DNA from: Podarcis liolepis
Taxonomy: Eukaryota
DNA: 64,000 nucleotides
Strand: one strand, 5' to 3'
Assembly (NCBI GenBank): GCA_965112155.1
Contig: OZ218107.1
In this document: one piece after another, positions 22,776-56,063 of the stretch
Layout of the letters: every line of letters starts with the position of its first letter
Numbering within the stretch: the stretch's first letter is position 1
The notes under the pieces: generated by a model
Database searches by the model: none
Told to the model about the DNA's origin: nothing
What the model saw: only the letters and a program-made list of their open reading frames with translations
Made by a program: the position numbers and the translations under genes

Positions 22776-22902
22776 CAGTGTTCCCCAACCTTGGGCCTCC
22801 AGCTGTTTTTGGACTACAATTCCCATCATCCTTGACCATCCTTGATCCTTGATGGGAGTTGTAGTCCAAAAACAGCTGGAGGCCCAAGGTTGGGGAACAC
22901 TG
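22776..22902. mobile_element. Palindromic hAT MITE
   Basis: Near-perfect arms of about 53 bp starting CAGTGTTCCCCAACC; exact 8-bp TSD CCCTAGAT. Confidence 0.92.
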
Positions 22903-28191: not shown

Positions 28192-29880
28192 GTAAGAGGT
28201 TTTTTTCACTTTCTAAAAAATATTTCATACTGTGATTAATTTCTTTTATATAAATGAAATATGTTAGCAGGAGAAGATTGAGTTGACTAAGGAAAATACA
28301 GTCAGATCCCCCCCCCCCCCGTATTCAATGCAGGAACAGAAGGTATTCTCCATTATGTATATTTGTACAATAATAATTCGCAAATTCTGTAGTTGGACAG
28401 GCTAATATGTTTGATAAATTGAATAATTAAAGACTTGTGTGAGTATGAGGTACCTATTCACAGAAAAGCTTGCCTGCGGCATCGCTGCATAATTTGTTGA
28501 TTGTGGTGTAGTTCCTTCCAATCAGCCTGTGGGTGGGGTAAGGGATAGTTCTTCTGTTTCAGTGGCATTGAATGTGATGGAATAATTTAATGAGAGCAGA
28601 ATGACCCAATCTCAGAAGAAACATGACTAATGGAGAAACACAGCAGATATACTTCTGGGTGTGGGTAGCTCTTACTCCTGCACCTTCTAAAACTTATTGG
28701 ACATCCATTTTTATTTTTTAAAAACTGATTTTTCTATAAGATCTTAGGAATATTTTCTGAACTTTTCCTTAGCATGCAATTGAGTAGTATGACCTGGACT
28801 TGGTAAAATGATGCATTTTCAGTTGTATGTGCTATGGCTGCAGTCCTATGAAAGATTCCTTAGGAATTGGTCCCTTTGGATCCAGAGGGGCTGGCAATTC
28901 AATCTAATGCATATTTAAAGCAAGTCAACTTGTTTTGCATTATTTATATCCTGCTCCACCCCTGAAAATGCCATAATACCCCAACATTAATATGAATTGG
29001 TGTCATAACAACTCCATAGCTTCCGACTCTTATTTTTCAGCATTGAGCTTTGTGAACTTCAGAAAATGAAATGCTTCTCAACTCCTTCAGCTGTTAGTGT
29101 TCTGTGCATTTCCAGTCATCAGCTGTGAGAAGACAAAGACCTGGTCAGCATGCATTGGTTTAATGTGAACCAGTGGTGTAGCAAGTTCAGGTGGTACCCG
29201 GTGCAGAAAATTTCTTGTCAACCCCCCCCCCAAATTATTAAAAGAAGGAAAAAATAAGATACTTAGTCAGTGTCATAGCTAAGGCCACCGTGTTTGGGGC
29301 CCTTTTGCTGTTCCTCATGCAGGAGTCCTGTCAATTTGCCAAGGTCCTCCCCTTCCCTCTGATTGTCCTTCTCTTCTCCCCCCCCCGCCCCACTTCCCAA
29401 GGGGGTGGGAAGGAACTCAGTTCCTGTCACCTCAGACTCCACCTCTTCTTTGCTTTACTTAATGCCTCATCATGTTCTTTGTTTCTCTTGCTTCAACCAC
29501 AGACAGAGCTCAAGCGTATTCCTGCCTAGCAAAAGCACCCAAGAATAGTGCAAATCAGGAGCAATAAGGGAGGATGTAATCTCTCATACCTGCACGCTGC
29601 TTCTGTGAACAGCCATAAGTATAGTGCTCAAGTACAGTGGATTTAGGTGGTGTCATAGGTGCCCCCCGCTTGCCTGCAGCAAGCCCCGTTGGGCCTTTTC
29701 ACAGCTCGCTGCAGGCGTGGGTAAGCCCAGTGGGGCTCGCCACAGGTGTGGGAAGGCCCGGCAAGGCAATTAAGCAGTTATAAATAAGTGAGCCCCCCCC
29801 CTAAGAATAATGCACTCAGATAAACTGAATAAAAAAATTCCTTCCAGTAGCACCTTAAAGACCAACTAAGTTAGTTCTTG

Positions 29881-29918
29881 GTATGAGCTTTCGTGTGCAT
29901 GCACACTTCTTCAGATAC
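29881..29918 (-). ncRNA. Minimal hammerhead ribozyme motif (antisense copy)
   Basis: Exact reverse complement of 29924-29961. Confidence 0.7.
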
Positions 29919-29923
29919 ACTGT

Positions 29924-29961
29924 GTATCTGAAGAAGTGTGCATGCACACGAAAGCTCATAC
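29924..29961 (+). ncRNA. Minimal hammerhead ribozyme motif (sense copy)
   Basis: Identical to 12500-12537; predicted cleavage after C29957. Confidence 0.72.
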
Positions 29962-32900
29962 CAAGAACTAACTTAGTTGGTCTTTAAGGTGCTACTGGAA
30001 GGAATTTTTTTATTTTGACTATGGCAGACCAACACGGCTACCTATCTGTAATCAGATAAACTGGTTTGTGCAGATATTTTTGGGTAAGATGCTTTGATCA
30101 TAATAACAGGCTGCATCCAACTAAATCCTACTTAGGGCAGGCCCTTTGAAATTAATGTTTGGATTTTTAATCCATTACAGTGAGTCTGCTCTGAGTAGGA
30201 CTAGCATCTGGGGGGGGAGAGATATGTAAATTTACAAAGAAGAAGGAGGGAAAACGAGGGCTGAGCAAATGTAAAAAGGATGGGGCAGCTGCATATTCCT
30301 GCATTCCAGAGGGCTGGACTAGATGATCCTCAGCAGGGTCCCTTCCAACTCTACAATACTATAATTCTAGGGGAAAGGAGCCAAAAGGGCAAAATCACTT
30401 CCCAAAGGTCTCTTTCCCCGTAAGAAAGGATTTAAAGTGAGGCAGGAAACAGTTAAGCAGGGAGATGTGGAAAGGTGAGAGGGGACACACACAGAGAGAG
30501 AGAGAGAGGGAGGGAGGGAGGGAGGGAGGAAAGAGTCACCCTGTTAATTTGTTTGCAGCTTCAAAAACACAGCCCATTACTCAAGAAAAGAAACCCATGA
30601 ATACCTGAGTGTAGGTGCTTAAGAGATACAGAGTGCCTGTCAGCAAAGAGAGAAGTGGCTCCCCGCAGCTCCCAAGTGCTGGTGGGACAGCTCCCTTTTC
30701 CCTCTCACCTGCCTCTGCCTCCCGGCCGTGGCTTTAAGGGTGATGCCTGAGCCTGGGTGGGTTCAGGGGGCAGCGACACAGGCACACGCTCCCCACACCG
30801 ATGGAGAGGGAAGGGGAAAGCCCTGTGGCCAGCAGCAGAGCAAGCTGATCGGACATGGGGCAGGGTGAGCTGGGCCTCCGAGGAGTTAGCCTGCCTCCAC
30901 CCACTCGGCCGAGGAGGAGACAGCGGGCGGATCTTTTGGGGCAGGATGGATCCTGCGGGCGCCCAAGCCACCACATCACTCCTAGGAGAGATGCGTGGCT
31001 CGGGCACGTTGCAGGCCGCACGGTGAGTGCCACCCAGCACTTTGTCACCCCCCCTCAGTGGGGACAGCCAGGGTGGACGGCCCCCACCGTACCCCCCCCA
31101 TCCTCCATCCCTGCTGTGAACAAGCAGTGTGCTACTATGTGTTGCTAAAATGCTCCTGGCCTGTTTCTTCCTTTGCTGAGCCAGGAAGAAAGCAACCACA
31201 GTGCTGGCTTACTTTTACACGAGAACCAATGCTCATGGATTGTGTTTCTTCAGTCTTTGGGTATTGGGTTATTGCTAATGGTTTGTTTGGGAGAAACGAG
31301 CTAGAAGTACTAGGTTTAGGATAATACTAATCAGTGATGTGGCTTGTTTCCTGCCAGCTCCTCAGCTTGCATGCCCTGGTACACCACCCATTCACAGTAT
31401 GCCATGGATTTTTCTGACCATAGCTTAAAATAATGGACAAATGGGGTCACTGAAAAGAGAGGACTTATTTGTGCTGTATATTCAGGGAAGTTTTTGGCTG
31501 AAGATTGCATTCTCTTTGAATTGCTTAAGTACAGTTTCTCTTGAAAATATTGTAAATCAAACGATGGATTAATGTTGCAGCCAGTAACAGTGTAATATAA
31601 TAAAACACATAATAAAACAGAACACAGATCAAAACTGACACATCAGTTTTATGATATCGTCATATGCAAATGATCTGTTAATTTGTCTTGAACAGACTAT
31701 TTGTAATTATACCTTTCCTGATAGGCAGAATAGGCCATAGCTGAATTCTTTTTAAGTAAGTATTCCCTTATTGATAAGGATGTCCTTTATATGTTTGTCA
31801 GTCTCACAGTTGCTCTTGAGTCAAATTTGGGACCAAACCATGTTCCTATAGTGTATATACATACCACCTTCAGGTTTGGCCTGGATCTGATAGAAATGTT
31901 ATCAACTAAAAACATTATTCCTTAGAAGAGTATGAATGTATACTAGCCTCTTATCAATTCTTACGTAAATGTTATGGTTGATTTGGTTTAATCATAATTC
32001 ATTATAGTCTTTAAATTGCTTCACTGTGTTTGTCGGTTGTCCTTGATCTGTTGATTTACAGGCTGCCGAATTGTTTTAATTGTAGCTTTTATTGATTTTA
32101 TTTTGGGCTTTGCATTGGTTCTATGTGTCCAGGAATTTATTAAGCTGCCTTGAGCGCTATTTGGCAGAAATGCAAAACTGAACAGCATAGCCTCTCAACA
32201 TGAAGGTAAAAAATGTTGCAATTTTTGAAATCTTCATTCCTATTACTTTATGGATATTACATTTTCCTTCACAGTTGGTGAAAGGATCAAGGGGATTCTT
32301 ATTGGGTAAATATTATAAGAGTGAACCACTGTTCAGCAGTCATTTAAAAAGCAAGTCAGTTTATTCCTGGTTGAAGGTAAACAGTAGATTCATGACTCAT
32401 ATAATGATTAAAAATAGAACAGTTAAGTCATAGCCATGTCTGGCTATTCTGTTCTCTTTAGATAGCTGGACAAAATGCCTGCATTCAGCAACATTAAAAA
32501 CAAAACTGTTGACTCTTGATATACTAAAATTCCAGAGACAAGGATAGGGCTTGTCTTCCTTTATATTATGATACTTTTAAGAGTAAGATTTGGCCACAAA
32601 ATGTCATTGTACCCAAGTTCTGAGAGCATAGTTTTGGTGCCACTGGAAGCACTTTAGAATAAATCAGTGACATAAATCATAGGGCTTCCAGGTGTAGCTC
32701 TACTGTGTTCTTCACTATAGAAACAGGAATTTTACTCTTGGAAACAAAAGTATATGTTCTGCTACTTAAAATATCTGCATTGAAGAATGGGAAACATCCA
32801 AATTATGTGTGCTTGAGCAGTTAGCAAGTTGTTCATACATGGTTGATTCGGTTAGATCCAGGCTGGCCATCCTGTGAATGTGGAAGGGCTCTTTCTCTTC

Positions 32901-32984
32901 ATAGAAAGGACCAGAAATTTCTTGCTAGAGGAATAATAATAATAATAAGAAGAAGAAGAAGTATAATAAGTATACTAATTATAA

Positions 32985-33650
32985 TTATTTATTTATACCC
33001 CGCCCATCTGGCTGCGCTTCCCCAGCCACTCTGGGCGGCTTCCAACAAAATATTAAATTACAGCAATCCATCAAACATTAAAAGCTTCCCTAAACAGGGC
33101 TGCTTTCAGATGTCTTCTAAAAGTCTGGTAGTTCTTCTTCTCTTTGACATCTGGTGGGAGGGCATTCCACAGGACGGGTGCCACTACCAAGAAGGCCCTC
33201 TGCCTGGTTCCCTGTAACTTGGCTTCTCACAGCGAGGGAACCACCAGAAGGCCCTCAGCACTGGACCTCAGTGTCCGAGTAGAACGATGGGGGTGGAGAC
33301 GCTCCTTCAGATATACTGGACCGAGGCCGTTTAGGGCTTTAAAGGTCAGCACCAACACTTTGAATTGTGCTCAGAAATGTACTGGGAGCTAATGTAGGTC
33401 TTTCAAGACCGGTGTTATGTGGTCTTGGCGGCCGCTCCCAGTCACCAGTCTAGCTGCCGCATTCTGGATTAGTTGTAGTTTCCAGGTCACCTTCAAAGGT
33501 AGCCCCACATAGAGCGCTTTGCAGTAGTCCAAGTGAGAGATAACCAGAGCATGCACCACTCTGGCAAGATAGTCTGCGGGCAGGTGGGGTCTTAGCCTGC
33601 GTACCAGGTGGAGCTGGTAAACAGCTGCCCTGGACACAGAATTGACCTGT
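32985..33650 (-). mobile_element. 5'-truncated L2 LINE 3' end
   Basis: HALVISHLDYCKALYVGLP..KLQLIQNAAARLVTG..DHITPVLKDLH, the L2 ORF2 C-terminus, plus the 3'UTR; AAT/AAG microsatellite alongside. Confidence 0.92.
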
Positions 33651-34434
33651 GGCTTTTGTCAATTTACCCTTCCTTTACAGTGCCCTGCACCACCTCTGGT
33701 GCTCCTCCAGAGTCCCCCAACTCTTCAAAGCAGATTTTCCTTGGGCTGAAAAGAGAAGAAGGTGCTGTAAAAATAGACTTATCCCTTCTGTCTGGCACTA
33801 GTGAAATGTCACAGAACATGTGAGGAATCTGGGGATCCAACCCTTTCTGTTTGCACACACAAAAATCCTTAAGTTTTCTTTTTCTAAAACCTTTTTGCAT
33901 GGTAAAAACTTGACAGACAAACATTTTATTGTTTAATTTGAATTTCTTGGTACCAGAAAATGGGCAGCATTCTTCTATGATTCAAATGCTTCATGTGCTT
34001 CACTATGTATAGCTGTGTTTTCTTGTTTTTTGAGTTCTCTTTGCAGTTTTCCCTTTTGAACTGTACTATAATTGGATGCAGATAAATTTCCATTTTGGAA
34101 GCATGCTGATAGGCCTAAAACAAGTAACGACAGCAACTTGGATAGTCTGCTTAATTAAAAAGTTTACATCTATTCCATGGTTTTAAACTCCTATGCTTGG
34201 TGTTCACTTCTTCCCTCTTTTACCAGAAAAGCCATACCTATGTGTTTCAGCTTGTGATAAACTAGAGTAAGATGACAATTTTTTTCTCTTGCCTAGGGTA
34301 GCTGTTTATACAATTTTGTAATATTTATAGGATGCTGAGATACAACAGAAAAGCATAGTTTAGCACTGGAGCCTTAAGTTTGCACACTCACTCCTCTTTT
34401 GTATGCTGCAATTAGTAATTCTCAATCCTAGTTT

Positions 34435-34754
34435 TTGTTGTTGTTGTTTAGTCGTTTAGTCGTGTCCGACTCTTTGTGACCCCATGGACCAGAGCACGCC
34501 AGGCACTCCTGTCTTCCACTGCCTCCTGCAGTTTGGTCAAACTCATGCTGGTAGCTTCGAGAACACTATCCAACCATCTCGTCCTCTGTCATCCCCTTCT
34601 CCTTGTGCCCTCCATCTTTCCCAACATCAGGGTCTTTTCCAGGGAGTCTTTCTCTTCTCATGAGGTGGCCAAAGTATTGGAACCTCAGCTTCACGATCTG
34701 TCCTTCCAATGAGCACTCAGGGCTGATTTCCTTCAGAATGGATAGGTTTGATCT
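34435..34754 (-). mobile_element. BovB (RTE) LINE 3' end
   Basis: TTTAGTCGTGTCCGACTCTTTGTGACCCCATGGAC..TCCAACCATCTC.TCCTCTGTC.TCCCCTTCTCCT..CATCAGGGTCTTTTCCA; (CAA)n tail. Confidence 0.9.
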
Positions 34755-37099
34755 AATTTACTGTTTCATATGAAAAAGGCAAACTATGGTGAGCTTGCAT
34801 AAAACAAAGATCAAGTCGACTAGGTATAGCAAGCTACTCTCCTGGAAGGAATAGATTACTATTATTCACATGAGTGTGAAGGGTTAATGACAGTGCTATA
34901 TTAAGGAAAGTAACTGTAAGTCCAGGATCACGTTTACATTTTGTTAATCTTATGTAACTGTAGTTGCCAAGGGAACAGGTTCCCCTCCTATTTGAGTGCT
35001 TTTCTAGTAACCTTGTCACAAAGAACAAATTGTGTTGCAAGTGTACCTGCTCTTTGTTGCCTCCTTCCCCAAACTGGTGCTCTTCAGGTTTTTTGGAATA
35101 CAACTCAAATTATTTCTCACCACTGGTCATACTCACTGGGCACATGAGATGAAGCCTTCTCTTTTGAAATGGACAGGGGAGTGGCTCCAGCCTTTCTTCC
35201 GATAGCATCCTGAGGTACACCACCTAACTTGGTTTGCTACATAATGGGATTTAAGCCTTACTATAAACCTAATTTATTGTCCATTTAACCCTAATGAGGA
35301 AAGACCATATACACAAAATGCTACTCTCATTGTAGAAAAGCTAATCACCCACAGCCACCCCCCCCCCCCCGCTAATCAAACTTAGGACAACTGACTGTTT
35401 CTTGTATCCGGGAAGCATTATCCAGAATCATGCCCCTTTCTTTTTCAATGTCTTCCGTGCTCAAGCCAAGCCAACCAGAGAGCACATGCCATGCTCTGTC
35501 CCCATTCCTGAGTTGTGCTCCTTCTCTCCTCCAGACTCTTATTCTCATGAGTCTTCTTTTTTCTGAGCTCTTGACTGCTGTCCCTCTGCTTCCTGGGATC
35601 ACCACTTCTTCTCTAATGTTCAGAGCCTAAGTGGAAGGCAAGGTAGTAACCCGCCTGCTCCTCCTATTTCCTTGCCTTTTTCTCAGTCTTACTGCAGTTA
35701 TACCCATTCTTTTCCACCCCTTTATGTGCAAGCTGTATTTTTTACCCATTCCACCAGCTCACCCCCCAAACATTCTCCTGCCTCTATCTTCCTTTCTAGC
35801 AAATCCAGTTAATTGCTGCGTTAGCACTCTTTCAGTAAAGAAAGCCTTTTTCGGTAAAGTCTTTTAACTTGTCTCTTGCTCCCTGAGCACCTTACAAAGG
35901 CAATCCACTGCGCCGACTAAACAATACGAACATTACCAGCACTTAGCTCGTTGGTATTTTGATTGTTATATTAGCTGGAGCAGAATGCACCAGACTGACA
36001 TCAGGCTGTTCTTTGGTAGAATAGGGCCATAGTCCCATTGGACAGAGTTGTTTGCTGCACACCACATGAGTTAAATTTCCCTAACTGCTTGTGTTCTGGA
36101 AGGGCTTATTCCATGGACACAGCAAAGTACTATGAAGATGTGTACTGAGTAAGTAAGCCGGGCAATGCTGTCATAATAGGATGCTGAGACATAACAATGA
36201 TCTCATGAGCAGAGTTGTGCATCTTACATGAACATCTTAGGGTGTGAATTTCCCCCGCTTCATTATTCAGAATACTTTCTTGCATTAAAATCACACGGCA
36301 GCAGAGCTGATTTCGCTGGTGCTCTGGTATCAGCCATTTCCTTCCAACGTGCCCCAGATATTGAATCATTCCAGGGCATTCTGGGGAAAACATGACAACA
36401 CCTACTATTAACTTCCACTCCTCTCCCAATATCCAAGGAATTTTGGAAAAATAAAATGGTAGGTGCTAAGTCATCCCTAAAATTGGGTGCTTCCTCCAGA
36501 AAAGGATAAGCCCCGCTCCCAAATGAAATTAATTGGATAATGAATCTGAATTCATTTCACTGCTTAGTGATGTTTACTTTATACAAGTATGTTGAATGAA
36601 ATGGATCCCATTTGTTTCTATTTTTCATTAATTACAAAATAAATTAACATTCCTTTTTCTATTAATACAGTACTTGTATAAAGTATATGCTTTTTCTCTT
36701 ATTTTTTATTTTTAAAATATTGCAATCCCTAACCTGACTTTGCTAAATTGAACTCCCAATATAGCCCAATATAAATTACACTCATATAAAAACAATTTGC
36801 AAATTTATTTAATCTGAGTGGTAAGATGAGCTTTTTGTAATAGAAGTAAAATCTAGATATACACTGAGGTTGCTTATGATCCAAAGGTAGTAATACACTA
36901 AGGTATGGTAACTATGGCTTTATTTGGACATTCTCTAACATCATCTCCTAAGATATATGGTCAACAGTCACTAGAGTCTGCTTTAACCTGAACACATTTT
37001 GGAAGCAGTGCAAGCACTTTCGGTTTGAATGAACATTTAGTGGCAGGGGTTAAGAGAAGTTCATTTTACCAGCAGAACAGAAAATAGTATTCTCTAGTT

Positions 37100-37589
37100 C
37101 AGTGTTTCCCAACCGGTGTTCCGCGGCACACTAGTGTGCCGTGAGACACCGGCTGGTGTGCCGTGGGAGGAAGGCGGGCGAGTCGGGCGGTGAGAGGTGG
37201 CGGCGGCGGCGAGGATCCGCGTCGAGCCGGGGGCGGCTCCGCGGTGGTGGTGCCGAGCGGCGGGGCAGCGCGCGCAAAAGGGAGGAGCGCGAGACAGCGG
37301 AGGAGGAGGAGGCCGGCATGTCCGGGCAGCAGCAGCAACAACAGCAGCAGCAACTCCCGCCGCCGCCCCCTCCTCCGCCCGCTATCGCCGCCGCCGCCTC
37401 AGCTGCCCTCGCTCTGCTGCCTCCTCCCACCCCGGCAAGGGGGAGGGAAAAAACTTTCGCTTTTGTGCGTCCCTCCCGGCGTGACGCTGCGCGCTGACGT
37501 CACGGGGCGGGGCTTTAATGGTGGTGTGCCGCGAGATTTTTTTCCGGCTAACAGGTGTGCCGTTGCCCAAAAACGTTTGGGAAACACTG
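37100..37589. mobile_element. Non-autonomous hAT element with a CpG-rich interior
   Basis: TIR CAGTGTTTCCCAA; repeated GTGTGCCG subterminal motifs; exact 8-bp TSD CTCTAGTT. Confidence 0.93.
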
Positions 37590-38979
37590 CTCTAGTTGTC
37601 TCGTAAGAACACATAGAACTCGCTCTGCAATTCTAGGGCTCTGATATGTAATATGAAGAAGACATGAAAATAATATTCTGTTACCTTTCAGCAGGTTGAA
37701 GCTAATTTTAACAGTACCAAGCAGCAACAACCTCCAAACCCCCATCTGTACAGAACCTTTATTGTATTTTAAGTCAAAGGGGGCAATTACAACTATAAAC
37801 TGCAGGATGATGTTCTTTAAATCAGAATAGTTTGCATTTTTATGGTTACTTAATTAGAAAGGCAGTCATCAAATTTTATTTTTAAGTTCATTATATGCTT
37901 TGTACAGTTAGATTGCGTTAATTTCTTGACTCTTGTCGAAGCACAGTAACTTTTAATACACATTCACAAAATTTAACATGCTTCTTAAGAATCCTCATTT
38001 TTGAAGCCCAGTTGATCTCTCAAAAGCCAAAATGAGGGCTTACAGTTGATACAATTAATGAAAAATCTGTGCATGTTTTTCATATAGTGCAACCAAAACA
38101 GATATGATAGAAGCCACAAATGAAGTTCCTGCGTGTTAGCAGTGCATACATGCTCCATTATCTATAAACACATTTGCCATGCACACCAGTCAAGTTGTGA
38201 TTGCCCGGTCAGATGTGCTGCTGACTTAACTCTCCATACATGAATGGCGATGAGGCGCATGGTGCCTTAGGTGTATTCATTCATTCCATTTATAACCTTT
38301 GTCTTAGCTTCTGTCATATCTGTATTGAAGGGTTTTTTTGTTCTCATGTAGCATACTTTTAAAGTGTTTATTTGATGTCACTGTGGATGCATACAAATCA
38401 TCATTTGCTGGGGTGAGAAATTGATCTGAACCATGGGCTCAAGGGAGAGCCTAGTGCTTGGATGCAAGTGGTTGGATGTCAAGAATCCCAGAACAGCAAG
38501 TTCTATCGCTTTTAAAAAGTAACATGAAAACAGCATGCAGAGCCCTTCTGCCCTTAATGATGCGGGGCAAACACTTGCAGCAGCAAGCAAGCAGTCATCA
38601 AGATTTGTCCGCAAATGTTAAGCCTTATTTTTAACAAAAAGCTGCTGCATATGTCAGCTTGGCCAGAACCTCCCCTCAACCCACGTGACCCCTGAAGGCA
38701 TAGGTGGCAACTGTCCAAGGCTTACATATCACTTCCTACTCTGAGCCCAGAGCCCAGCATCTCAGGGCTCACTGATAAGCATAGTAACAAAGCAAGCCAA
38801 GTGGCACATATCAAAGCATGTATGAGCTCATTCCCACAGCAACTATCAGTTAATTTTGAGGTTATCTTGACTACCAAGATGACTGACACGGGCCCAGTTG
38901 CGACCATGCGGAGATTTCTGGACTGACATCTCCACCTGGCTGGCCTTTCTATCTTTCTTAAGCAGGTAAGCAGAAGAGC

Positions 38980-39177
38980 TTATTTATTGTGTTTATATCC
39001 CAACCTTTTCCCCAAGGAGTACATGTTTCACAGCCTCCTCAGTTAATCTCTACAACAACCCTGTGAGGTAGGCTGTGACTGGCCCAAGGTCACTGAGAGA
39101 GCTTCCTGACTCGAGTGGGTATTTGAACCCTGATCTCACACTGATCTGACACTCTTAACCACTACACCACACTGACT
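38980..39177 (-). mobile_element. tRNA-derived SINE (Squam3/MIR-core-like), degenerate
   Basis: GACTGGCCCAAGGTCAC and CTCTTAACCACTACACCACACTG shared with 51930-52169. Confidence 0.7.
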
Positions 39178-40998
39178 TCCTTAGAGTACTTCTGCTGTGG
39201 TCCAGCTATATAAATTAAGTAGGTAAATAAATAAGAGCAAAGCAAAATGTAATTTAAAGAAGAATCTGAACTATTTCCTTAAAGCTTGAATTTGTTTTAT
39301 TTTAGATTGTTTTATTTGATGTTTTAATGTGTTGTAAACAACCTTGATTTTTTTAAAAAAATAAAGCGGTATAGAAATGGAATGAAAATAATAATAAGTA
39401 TAATAAGTTCCATGGGGGGGGGGGGAGAAGGTTCCTAGACAGTCTGTTCTGGCAACCCCAGCCTAGGTTTAAGGTGCCATTTGGCAATCAGCTTATATAT
39501 CTGAGTTTCTAACACTGCAAGATGGCGTTTGCAGGCCTTCCACAGAGAAAGAAGCCTAGTTTGTTATCTATGTCTTCATTTTTATGCTATCCATTCCTTT
39601 GACAAAATATTAAAACATCTTGCTACAAAACAAGAGCTGGAAGTGCCTTTTTCCAGCCTGAGTGCTTATCTTTCAACACTGCATGTTTAATTTAAATCTG
39701 ACTACAGTATGTTGCTGTAACTAATTGTATGTAGACAGAAAGTCCTAGGAAAAATTTCTTAATGGCAAGCTAAATCATCTAAATCATCTATGTCTAAACT
39801 CTTAACAGTGTTAGCTGATGGATTATTAAACAAAAACTGGCTATTGGAGTTTCTGTGGAGGAAACATGTTGACTTGACAGTCGTGTTTGAGAGTACATTT
39901 GAGAGTAGCATTTTGTTGCGTTGCTGACATTTAGACAGGCTGATTGCTGGTCAAGAAGTCACTGCATTTGTGTCAATGGAGAACAGATGGTTGTAGGGAG
40001 GGCGTATGTCCAAGAGAGTGGGAAATGAGGTAATGAAAGGGGGGGGATAGATATATTAACACATATTTAAAATTGTCATAGGCACAAAGCTATAAAAATT
40101 AGGCATCTAGAAATTAGATGTGGACTCATTTTAAAAGAACGGAAAGCAGGCACTGCTGCATAGAAGCTTAGAATACATTGCCATTTAATGAAAAGTGCTG
40201 CCTTCTCCGTTATTTTTGTATCAGTGCATAGGAAGGCAAATGTATAAGATCCTAGGGTTTGCATTAGACAGCACAGGAGAAGTGAATGCACTGGCTGGTA
40301 AATAATCTGCTATGCATATTAATGTTGGTTCAGTAAACATCATTTTCTTAATCCCTTGCTCCAGCCTTGTAATTAAATTTATTGATATTCTACGCAGCAG
40401 AATATATTAGTTAGTGATTCAAACAAGGCAATGTATTTTATAGTATAAATAGTAATTCTCTTGCTTTTATTGTAAATAATTGTGCAACATGAAATGCATA
40501 TTCTCTTTCTCTGCTTCTATTATGTTTGTTCCTGAAGAGAGAAATTAAAGTCAGACATTTTTCATTATCTCTTTCAGTTGTGTTGCAACATTTTTATACC
40601 AAAATATTGAAATATAAATTAAACCTTTTTATTAAAACTAAGTCATTAAAATACATATAAACAATTTATTTATTTTTTAAATGCAGCCACCTTTTCTTAT
40701 CTGCTACCTTTTGTTTTACTTGCATTGTTTAATTATTTTTTTTACCATTTGTGGGTTTTTTGCATTTCATGTTGAGTATGATCTTTTATTTATGTTGAAA
40801 TGCTAAACTAGCATTGCACTTGCCACCTTTTAGCCTGGTCATAACTTCAGATCTCCTCTTACTGTACTATTAAAAATGTTTAATTTGTACTTCTGTGCTT
40901 TAGAAAATATTTTGTATATTTGTGTAAATGTAAATTGTTTTGTAATTTATTCTGTGTATAAAACTGACCCTTGTTTACTGTATATGACTTTCTTTTAG

Positions 40999-41994: not shown

Positions 41995-43603
41995 GTATGC
42001 TGAAATATCTGGCTTTATTTGATTCCATACTGTAGAGTTTAAAACTTCCTGAGCAGCTTACAGCCGTTAAAACAGTAATAAGGTATTTTAAAAGAATTTT
42101 AAAAATTGAAGCTAAAAAATCTCAGAATCCCCAAAGCTCTAAAAATCCTGAGTAAATAAAGATACCTTCATCTGGTACAAAAAGACATCAAGTTCAAAGC
42201 CCCTCTGGCAAGACTGTAATAGTTGGAGTGTGCCAAAGCAAAAAATACCTTGGTGGAATCTACACTCATATAAAAAACATTCTGAAAATGCTTTAAAAAA
42301 TAATAAATACATTGAATTTTCCATAAGGCTCGGCATTGCCATCTAGTGTCACATTGTATATTGCACTTAAAACACACTTTATCTGCGGTTGTAAAGCTGA
42401 GTCCCTTGTCTCCAAAGTTGTAAGTTATTTTTGAGGAGGCTGGTTTAAGCCCATGTTTTTTCTTCTTTTTGAATAACTTTTTATTGGGTTTTAAAAATCA
42501 AGGATCATAGGAATAATAAATTATACAAATAGACCACGTCTTTTCATATCATTCATACATCACAAAAATACACAATAAGTTTGCAGTAATATCTATGACA
42601 TACAATTTATTATTAGTGGTCAGTATATAAGCTCTTGGTTCATTGATTGGTTAAACAAAAACAAAGGGGATAAAAAAACAGGATAAAAATACAGGATAGA
42701 ACAGAGTTAACAGATAACATTCAACATCACTTAGCTAATCGCCTAATCAGGAGCCCTTGTGGTTGTGCTTAGATTAAGTATGAGTAATAGTCATTTTTTC
42801 CTCTTAAGTTACCAATGAAACAATATAGAGTGCTTGTATATTGATGAATGGGGGGTTTCAAAGTGAATATAATAATTTATGTTTACATTTAAATTTAGAT
42901 AAACCAGATTGAGCCAAATGCTGATGGTGGGGGGATTATTCATTTTCTGGAATATGTTATGAAATTAAACTATATTGGAGTAAAGCCATCTTTCTTGATT
43001 TGTCAATGTGTCAACTGTAGTTTATTTGTAGTTTATTTCTTAAGGAGGGCTGTTTCCCAAACTGTTTTGTACCAATTGTCTATTGTTGTGCCGGCGGAAA
43101 AGTCTTTTCAGTCTCTGGTTATGTTGTGCTTTGCCACTTGTAATAAATGGCTTGTTAATTCTTTAAGTTCAGGCCTTTTTGACTAAACATGTTATATTTT
43201 CTTTTCTTAACAGACACTAATACTGTGTACTTGTAATACTTGGCTCTGGTTCTAGAATTACTGACTGAATTGGATAGAGCTGGCTCCAATTTCAGCCAGT
43301 ATTAATCTCTGAAGTGATGTACTTAGGCCCTTGTGAGATCAAAAAAGAGCACTTTGTTCCATAGAGGGAGAAAGTAAATGATCACAGAGAGCTGGGGTGG
43401 CAGCTAGTTCATCATCAATGATTGTTATGATTTATTTATTTTTATATCAAACAGTTTTAAGTCACTTAATAGTTTTAACGTAGGGTACAACATAAACAGA
43501 AAATCATAAAACCAGGAATTCAGGCAGTCAAAAACATTCCCTGAACTTATGGGTCAGGGAAAGACCAGGCAAAAAGTTAGGTCTTTACAAGACACATGAT
43601 GTA

Positions 43604-44257
43604 CCGTATTTTTTGCCCTATAGGACGCACTTTTCCCCCTCCAAAAATGAAGGGGAAATGTGTGTGCGTCCTATGGGGAGAATGCAGGCCTTCGCTGAAG
43701 CCTGGAGAGCGAGAGGTGTGCACCGACCCATCTTGCTCTCCAGGCTTCAGGCAGCTATCCGCAAGCCTGCGGAGCCCGGCGGGAACTCCCGCGGGCTCCG
43801 AAGGCTTGCGGATAGCTGCCTGCAGCCTGAAGCCCAGGGAGCGTGGCACTGTGCACCCCGGGCTTAGGGCAGCTATCCGCAAGCCTTGGGAGCCCGGCGG
43901 GAGTTCCCGCCGGACTCCCAAGGCTTGCGGACAGCAAGCTCCACAAGCTCCGGGAGCGATGGCGAGGTTGCGCAACCTCGCCTTGGCACCCAGACCCATT
44001 CTGGGGGCTGGGGTTGGGGGAAGCTCGGGCTTCCCCCATCCCCAGCCCCGCAAGCTCCAGGAGCAATGGCGAGGTTTCACAACCTCGCCATCGCTCCCGG
44101 ACCCCCGGACCCGAGGCTAAAAACAAAGCCAGGACAGCCAGCGGGATCCATCCCGCTCGCTGTCATGGCTTCTTTGCTCTTTGGGGCTCGGGGGAAAAAT
44201 AATTCCCCCTCCTTCCCCCCCCCAAAGTAAGTGCGCCCTATAGGGCGGAAAATACAG
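43604..44257. mobile_element. Tc2/pogo-like MITE with a GC-rich palindromic interior
   Basis: TA TSD; 29-bp imperfect TIR CCGTATTTTTTGCCCTATAGGACGCACTT. Confidence 0.88.
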
Positions 44258-55658: not shown

Positions 55659-56063
55659 TTATTCCCTTCGTACATAGAAGATGTTGTATCCAAGTTCTAT
55701 TATCCCTCCAATGAGCAACACCCAAAAGGGAATAAAGACATAAACTAGCTTTATTTCAGCAAGTTGTTCCAATTTTGCACAGAGGGCGAGGCAGAAGGCC
55801 AACTTAAGCAGCATTGCTACAAGGTACCAAGCTTTCTTCTTGAGGTGACGGGACCCATTTCGGGGGTCATAGCCAGACTTACAACGGCGAGCCATTTTTA
55901 CAATTATCATAACTAGAAGAATAGTATCAAATATCCAAACTGGGATAAATATGAGAAACCAGTTCCATGGTGCCTTTTCATCCAATTTCAACACTAACAT
56001 GATCAGGAACAGCAATGTGAAGAGCCATGTGAGCAGCACTCTCTGCGCCAAGGACATTCTCAT
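55659..56063 (-). CDS. TMEM60: Transmembrane protein 60 (134 aa, single coding exon)
   Basis: MRMSLAQRVLLTWLFTLLFLIMLVLKLDEKAPWNWFLIFIPVWIFD.. is recognisably TMEM60, with four hydrophobic segments. Upstream acceptor ttctgctttatcctag puts the exon start at 56109. Confidence 0.96.
   Translation of the reverse strand: MRMSLAQRVLLTWLFTLLFLIMLVLKLDEKAPWNWFLIFIPVWIFDTILLVMIIVKMARRCKSGYDPRNGSRHLKKKAWYLVAMLLKLAFCLALCAKLEQLAEIKLVYVFIPFWVLLIGGIIELGYNIFYVRRE

Follow-up and report, generated by a model that had tools for sequence, protein, structure and literature searches.

Known systems of gene capture

Rice Pack-MULEs number in the thousands, and their acquisition of host sequence is described as biased towards GC-rich genes in open chromatin (Zhao et al. 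2018, PMC5861414). Helitrons of bats, among them HelibatN3, are described as capturing serially, with a preference for the promoter, 5' untranslated region (5'UTR) and first exon, and as attaining copy numbers of up to thousands (Thomas et al. 2014, PMC4224331). For animals, the text of a systematic survey gives 370 Pack-TIRs (TIR, terminal inverted repeat) in 100 genomes, four of them multicopy with an example of three copies; according to that text most arose without transposition, the multicopy ones tend to be GC-rich, and the word 'lizard' is absent from the main text (Tan et al. 2021, PMC8277862). Here we describe a non-autonomous Buster-type hAT element of 490 bp in intron 3 of RSBN1L, at positions 37100-37589 of a window of 64,000 nucleotides, the whole stretch analysed, from Podarcis liolepis (contig OZ218107.1). 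We consider it probable that this element is young, that its interior is a trimmed patchwork of three host CpG-island gene starts assembled by template switching, that it is mobilised by a transposase encoded elsewhere, and that its copies are methylated, decaying passengers.

The lizard family resembles Pack-hAT-N8_XT of Xenopus tropicalis, as far as the survey presents it, in being a TIR element (mostly hAT) carrying host DNA whose parent, free of transposable elements (TEs), lies on another chromosome, and in having distinct target-site duplications (TSDs); it differs from the animal Pack-TIRs presented there in that its cargo types give 76-353 exact pattern matches, its cargo forms mosaics of at least three genes and it has intact partners (PMC8277862). 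Internal non-TE sequence with an unlinked parent, and several copies with distinct TSDs, were both found. Thousands of elements and GC-rich parental genes are shared with rice Pack-MULEs, but these are described as inserting near gene starts, expressed ones being lowly methylated, whereas one of 59 lizard copies has island-like flanks and the copies show methylation decay (PMC5861414). The likeness to the bat Helitrons lies in 5'-biased serial capture by a vertebrate DNA transposon at high copy number; Helitrons, however, are rolling-circle elements without TIRs or TSDs, while the lizard element is of the cut-and-paste type and its autonomous copies carry host 5' sequence (PMC4224331). With Buster (Charlie) hATs and MITEs (miniature inverted-repeat transposable elements) it shares the nnnTAnnn TSD, a short TIR and a ZBED5/FAM200-type transposase, but the non-autonomous Buster members described are internal deletions of an autonomous element, whereas the lizard interiors are host DNA (PMC3517528).

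Assignment as a multicopy Pack-hAT is well supported, the family being notable for its scale, its multi-gene mosaics and the host-derived 5' ends of its intact partners. Multicopy Pack-TIRs are very rare in animals according to the survey. The lizard family represents gene-start capture on a Pack-MULE scale by a hAT in an amniote, and its insertions are recent and likely polymorphic. It opens a vertebrate test of whether 5'-end capture results from chemistry or from selection, and a test of relocated CpG islands, whose apparent methylation is relevant to the question whether an island is protected by its sequence alone. For RANBP9 and the other parents, family copies are also a potential source of error in gene annotation and read mapping. 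A literature search found no paper on the lizard family; Repbase, Dfam, subscription journals and the supplements of Tan et al. lay outside it, and a prior description is possible.

A mosaic of three host gene starts

The element ends in a perfect 13-bp TIR, CAGTGTTTCCCAA, at 37100-37112 and 37577-37589, and the same 8-bp TSD stands on both sides of it. Pack-MULEs have Mutator-type long TIRs and TSDs of 9-11 bp, unlike these. The interior (37170-37520) has a GC content of 0.73 and a CpG observed/expected ratio (o/e) of 1.01, where the 1-kb flanks show 0.36-0.38 and 0.22-0.28; it thus qualifies by sequence as a CpG island (GC >= 50%, o/e >= 0.6, >= 200 bp). An earlier note on this DNA had pointed out the TIRs, the exact TSD and the CpG-dense interior within an AT-rich intron, as well as a cAMP response element (CRE) at 37495, a half-CRE at 37482, a GC box at 37504 and two start codons, 37318 (+) and 37319 (-), which overlap as CATG; all of these lie where it had placed them. 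The element can be resolved as follows.

37092-37099, + strand: left TSD CTCTAGTT, nnnTAnnn, Buster type; the empty site skips 498 bases
37100-37204, + strand: left TIR plus subterminal arm carrying GTGTGCCG repeats; 37100-37143 is 93% to the autonomous copy L191
37205-37295, - strand: CpG island upstream of TCF20 in two pieces (37205-37257 and 37257-37295), 98% and 100% to parent locus L090
37293-37405, + strand: RANBP9 exon 1 in three pieces, with the end of the 5'UTR, start codon at 37318, and polyQ, polyP and polyA tracts
37407-37508, - strand: CpG island of a DP-family gene in three pieces, 93-100% to parent locus L107; half-CRE 37482-37486, full CRE 37495-37502
37504-37515, no strand assigned: GC box GGGGCGGGGC, common to the 536-bp (L045-type) sister subfamily, not in the C4 parent
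37516-37589, + strand: right subterminal arm and TIR, 90-97% to L191
37590-37597, + strand: right TSD CTCTAGTT, same letters as the left one

The GC-rich distal part of the left arm (about 37165-37204) is common to many subfamilies. Judged by these sequence matches, the interior is a mosaic of three host CpG islands without TIRs, those of TCF20, RANBP9 and a DP-family gene. That a hAT element carries captured host DNA, as the earlier note held, is thereby borne out by three TIR-less parents; a single captured promoter and 5'UTR read on the minus strand, its more specific proposal, is wrong, the interior being a patchwork of three genes. TIR-less parental loci, which it suggested looking for, are RANBP9 exon 1 on C8 and islands on C11 and C4, and the comparison of family interiors that it advised showed that the cargo differs across the family. 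Of the features that the note had together named as fatal to its reading, an interior present in all copies and lacking a host-gene source is not what was found.

The RANBP9 parent (L071) lies at G000:C8:60,208,510-60,208,956 on the minus strand, with other exons of the gene at C8:60.184-60.199 Mb and no TIR near exon 1. The gene was identified through a longer relative of the element, whose reading frame matches reptile RANBP9. Conservation of exon 1 extends to other squamates and a tortoise, which establishes the direction of capture as from host to transposon. In the 490-bp element most of the exon has been deleted, including its splice donor; the frame from the ATG at 37318 reads MSGQQQQQQQQQLPPPPPPPP.. 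and stops after 59 codons. The minus-strand ATG at 37319, with which the earlier note ended its minus-strand reading, is an accident of the CATG palindrome; the polyQ and polyP tracts and the ATG at 37318 belong to the plus-strand coding exon 1 of RANBP9. A minus-strand open reading frame (ORF) of 62 aa from this ATG was rejected as coding; it is the antisense of the mosaic.

The TCF20 parent (L090, G000:C11:32,265,261) is without TIR and lies 8.2 kb upstream of a TCF20 coding exon; an Atlas search with that exon gave nothing useful. Its direction corresponds to the minus strand of the window, and an 80-bp stretch with its CCAAT box is deleted in the element. The third parent (L107, G000:C4:28,669,621), also without TIR and with its gene in the direction of the window minus strand, lies between a gene of the Na/H-exchanger family and a downstream exon matching Pfam DP (E 8.6e-5, below the curated cut-off). 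This DP-family gene is likely TFDP1, a name that we presume, as we do TMCO3 for the neighbour at the C4 island. We infer from position and downstream donors that the TCF20 and C4 islands are promoters. The three parent islands have a GC content of 0.67-0.70 and a CpG o/e of 0.95-1.01. A host source of the GC box was not found: of 76 exact matches the first 30 all lay in elements, with one further element, and the top 40 of 87 candidates were near-identical copies. The CREs come from a different gene than the ATG, and the GC box derives from a sister subfamily; they do not form with the ATG the single promoter unit that had been supposed.

Longer relatives retain more of RANBP9. Elements of about 1,265 bp hold the whole of exon 1 with its donor at 95-96%, and one element of 1,594 bp adds the promoter and 5'UTR, while the 740-, 560-, 520- and 490-bp forms show stepwise more loss of promoter, exon and donor. 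The 490-bp element is a deletion derivative, and the series would run 1,594/1,265 > 740 > 560 > 520/490 bp. These relatives also bear on whether the CpG-rich interior could be native to the transposon, its likeness to host genes arising by chance or exaptation. The 133 exact matches that share the interior (see below) and the CpG-rich 5' ends of the autonomous copies would fit this; however, the longer relatives hold the complete exon, donor and promoter, in further elements there are exons with above-cut-off matches to Pfam RIIa and CDK5_activator, and the parents have no TIRs. A native interior is refuted by the conservation of RANBP9 exon 1 in other reptiles and its TIR-less parent, and we give it virtually no credence.

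In the elements, the RANBP9 promoter and intron start contain stretches without counterpart in the present host allele (L071 compared with L074 and L031); the elements may therefore preserve an older or different allele. An element of the 887-bp type lies inside the RANBP9 gene itself (G000:C8:60,187,078).

Insertion site, copies and age

Protein matches indicate that the DNA is from a lacertid lizard. RSBN1L is encoded on the plus strand, its best lizard match being 99% identical, and the element lies in one of its introns:

28198-40998, + strand: RSBN1L host intron, third by exon matches, 12.8 kb, holding the 490-bp element

An empty site, with the 498 bases skipped, was found in contigs of two other (related) samples, as one 2,183-base contig in X3 and as a 22-base overhang in X1, which may carry the filled allele as well. 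In the raw DNA run X23 coverage extended over the 490-bp element only, the flanks being uncovered. The insertion in RSBN1L is recent and likely polymorphic.

The genome contains at least 40 full-length matches to the element at 99.6-100%, and a 38-mer from its interior has 133 exact matches. All 59 of these matches listed on contigs C1-C6 were examined. Every one is bounded by TIRs and 58 have a perfect 8-bp TSD of their own, which argues that the TIR/TSD structure is not due to chance. Sixteen copies equal the majority type exactly and three belong to sister subfamilies; the remaining 56 have a mean divergence of 0.26% (0.17% outside CpG). With a substitution rate of 1-3e-9 per site and year, this divergence corresponds to a subfamily age of roughly a million years or less. 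The flanks are CpG-island-like in a single copy, and capture is thus not explained by a preference for inserting into islands. On contig G000:C10 there was no match among the listed matches of any search.

Cargo across the family and its origin

A 32-mer from the left end has 2,701 matches in the genome at up to one mismatch. Forty places on C1 were fetched, 39 from the top of this match list and one 490-bp copy, and yielded 41 TIR-bounded elements of 118-1,451 bp. After removal of an empty 118-bp mini-element, all 40 sampled elements (>260 bp) have an interior GC >= 0.5 and o/e >= 0.6, values reached by 15 of 402 300-bp windows of flanking DNA. Exact pattern counts of other cargo types were 213, 76 and 353. 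The six parents that could be traced are all TIR-less CpG islands: RANBP9, the TCF20 island, the C4 island, a first exon of a gene which we take to be UBE2G1, C4:73.3 Mb and C13:23.9 Mb. Among 22 full-length matches to the UBE2G1-type exon, 21 are TIR-bounded and the remaining one is a TIR-less island; the parent at C4:73.3 Mb (96%) corresponds to a signal-peptide first exon and that at C13:23.9 Mb (97%) to the abundant 491/694-bp type. The cargo of further elements includes what is presumably an FH-like start.

The cargo junctions share 0-4 exact bases and show fillers and fold-back inversions; such features would fit template switching. According to the mechanism we propose, gaps left by excision would be repaired by copying, with a template switch to open, GC-rich loci, and capture would be serial, a newly captured piece displacing some of the older cargo, of which scraps would persist near the ends. 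Deletions would then trim the product, intact transposase copies would amplify successful forms, and inserted copies would become methylated and decay as passengers. The bias towards CpG islands probably comes from open GC-rich chromatin serving as template and from short matches to the GC-rich arms.

Another route to the same cargo is composite transposition, in which copies beside or inside each other move the DNA between them by their outer ends, followed by internal deletion. Inner TIRs or whole mini-elements in L031, L037, L050, L064, L074 and all autonomous copies, and a Pack element nested in the transposase ORF of L127, are what it would leave behind. No fetched parent locus has a TIR, however, one of the 59 copies adjoins a CpG island, and in L329 pieces of different chromosomal origin meet, showing short matches and fold-back inversions, so that we regard this route as unlikely.

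Several points weigh against the patchwork by template switching that we prefer. The inner TIRs in the L031-type 118-bp mini-element, L127 and L188-L195 fit composite transposition. The junction matches are short, and automated junction calls were noisy near substitutions, so that their clean rows and the module map given above were used. The 40 interiors are not independent, most of them sharing the C4 scrap and at least 16 sharing RANBP9 or TCF20 pieces. As parents were sought for CpG-rich cargo, the finding of six islands out of six is partly circular, and the tracing excluded the AT-rich cargo of L036, L057, L060, L065 and the autonomous copies. No parent was found for the L045 (GC-box) cargo, the L054 interior or the 5' island of L191; for the latter two, each of the 60 loci retrieved had a TIR-like end no more than 1.5 kb away. 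Both methylation and transposase activity are predicted.

At least 18 older copies of the UBE2G1-type exon 1 (L264-L271, e.g. G000:C13:16,461,560) show 75-87% identity and mostly lack the Buster-type family ends. The CpG o/e was 0.41-0.62 in the seven 300-bp ones measured, and three of seven checked are enclosed by A-rich inverted ends of another kind, some 400 bp from each other. They look as if another element had captured this exon earlier and independently. L033 and L053 have (GGGTTA)3 beside one of their cargo junctions, which may be a filler made of telomere repeats.

Autonomous copies

Eleven long matches were obtained for a transposase that has the ends of the 490-bp element. Ten were fetched besides L127, and eight of these have an uninterrupted ORF of 625-626 aa; six are bounded by TIRs and a TSD, and five encode identical proteins. 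The transposase is of the ZBED5/FAM200 type (Atlas match of 0.99 to ZBED5/FAM200-like clusters); Pfam gave only a Spin-doc finger, below the cut-off, and a PDB sequence search gave 0 matches. The D, D, E, CxxH and RW motifs were located in the sequence, with the roles that we presume for them. TA occupies positions 4-5 in 213 of 217 TSD pairs, and the Buster consensus is given as an 8-bp nnnTAnnn TSD (PMC3517528). This TSD, a short TIR with subterminal repeats and a Buster-type transposase with the same ends were all found here. The intact copies likely mobilise the 490-bp elements, to judge from the identical copies, the five identical ORFs and the empty site.

Immediately before each of the eight intact ORFs stand about 215 bp of C4 host island sequence (89-93%), with a polypyrimidine/AG acceptor. 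In L191 the order is island, GTGAGT donor, 900-bp intron, host-derived acceptor and ORF, whereas in L127 two host-contiguous pieces are separated by a later insert. This arrangement raises the possibility that the cargo is functional for the transposon, the island keeping elements open and supplying a transposase promoter, so that the bias would reflect selection among elements and not the chemistry of capture, and some copies, perhaps the one in RSBN1L too, would be new antisense promoters. The C4 island sequence before every intact ORF and the L191 layout speak for it, as does a contig, guessed to derive from RNA, of one relative that is spliced at the acceptor. According to the bat study, copy numbers are higher for Helitrons that carry 5' cargo (PMC4224331). 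In contigs guessed to derive from RNA of related organisms, the transposase ORF was covered in three of three runs, and a 2,227-base contig of X16 departs from the reference at the captured acceptor. This contig, however, continues into a host exon that ends in a donor at C7:68.41 Mb, and not into the first exon of the element; it supports use of the captured acceptor, in one contig of another organism, with a host exon rather than the element's own promoter. Functional cargo is in our judgement possible, though well short of probable. A related scenario, which we put forward only tentatively, is an active transposon whose transposase would be expressed from captured island promoters and acceptor, serially swapped, with island cargo aiding mobilisation and about 2,700 promoter fragments, some polymorphic, being scattered through the genome.

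A motif from the spliced X16 contig was not present in any of the 238 loci examined. L239/L240 (G000:C7:68,409,232 and 68,411,547) hold a duplicated host exon, which in the relative's contig is joined by splicing to the complete transposase ORF; this transcript is possibly a host-transposase fusion or a gene trap. A cargo-carrying element lies inside the transposase ORF of the same family at L127:5592-6205 (G000:C15:44.84 Mb).

Predicted methylation and promoter potential

Deamination of 5-methylcytosine raises the rate of CpG transitions. In the 56 copies of the 490-bp subfamily, 36 transitions fell on 118 CpG sites and 11 on 220 other C/G sites (6.1-fold, p 6e-9), and the excess in four other subfamilies was 7.0-, 4.9-, 8.3- and 11.6-fold. 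Autonomous copies were left out of these ratios, because a divergence of 10-12% among near-identical copies pointed to an orientation error. For five parents, comparison with their families gave 9 fixed differences on 554 CpG and 17 on 1,404 other C/G sites, a ratio of about 1.3. The sole private change of the window copy, C>T at 37198, turns a CpG into TpG. On account of this excess the inserted copies are likely methylated in the germline and the parents unmethylated. The earlier note had called the intact CpGs a sign of an element 'young or unmethylated'; youth is upheld by the mean divergence and the empty site, but the transition excess speaks against an unmethylated state, and with CpG transitions 5-12 times above those of other C/G sites the intact CpGs indicate youth only.

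For a functional cargo it can be said that only three fixed CpG losses separate the amplified families from their parents. This may, however, reflect no more than a short time from capture to amplification, and in inserted copies CpGs decay at 5-12 times the rate of other C/G sites. The window copy, moreover, has lost the CCAAT stretch, motifs that we take to be NRF1/E2F-like, and all three donors. The two promoter scraps that it retains, from TCF20 and the C4 island, face antisense to RSBN1L and are both truncated, and no splice-donor match was found on the minus strand of the element. With CCAAT box and donors lost and methylation likely, there is a small chance at most that the copy in RSBN1L acts as a promoter; it is probably ordinary cargo.

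Other features of the window

Small hairpin-like MITEs with related ends, CAGTGTTCCCCAA, occur at 22776-22902, where the TSD is CCCTAGAT, and from 54927 onward; they form a separate, cargo-free family. Further GC-rich repeat-like stretches lie in RSBN1L introns at 43500-44250 and 30700-31300. Downstream of RSBN1L, a single-exon ORF at 55659-56063 on the minus strand matches Pfam Tmemb_185A and is presumably TMEM60.

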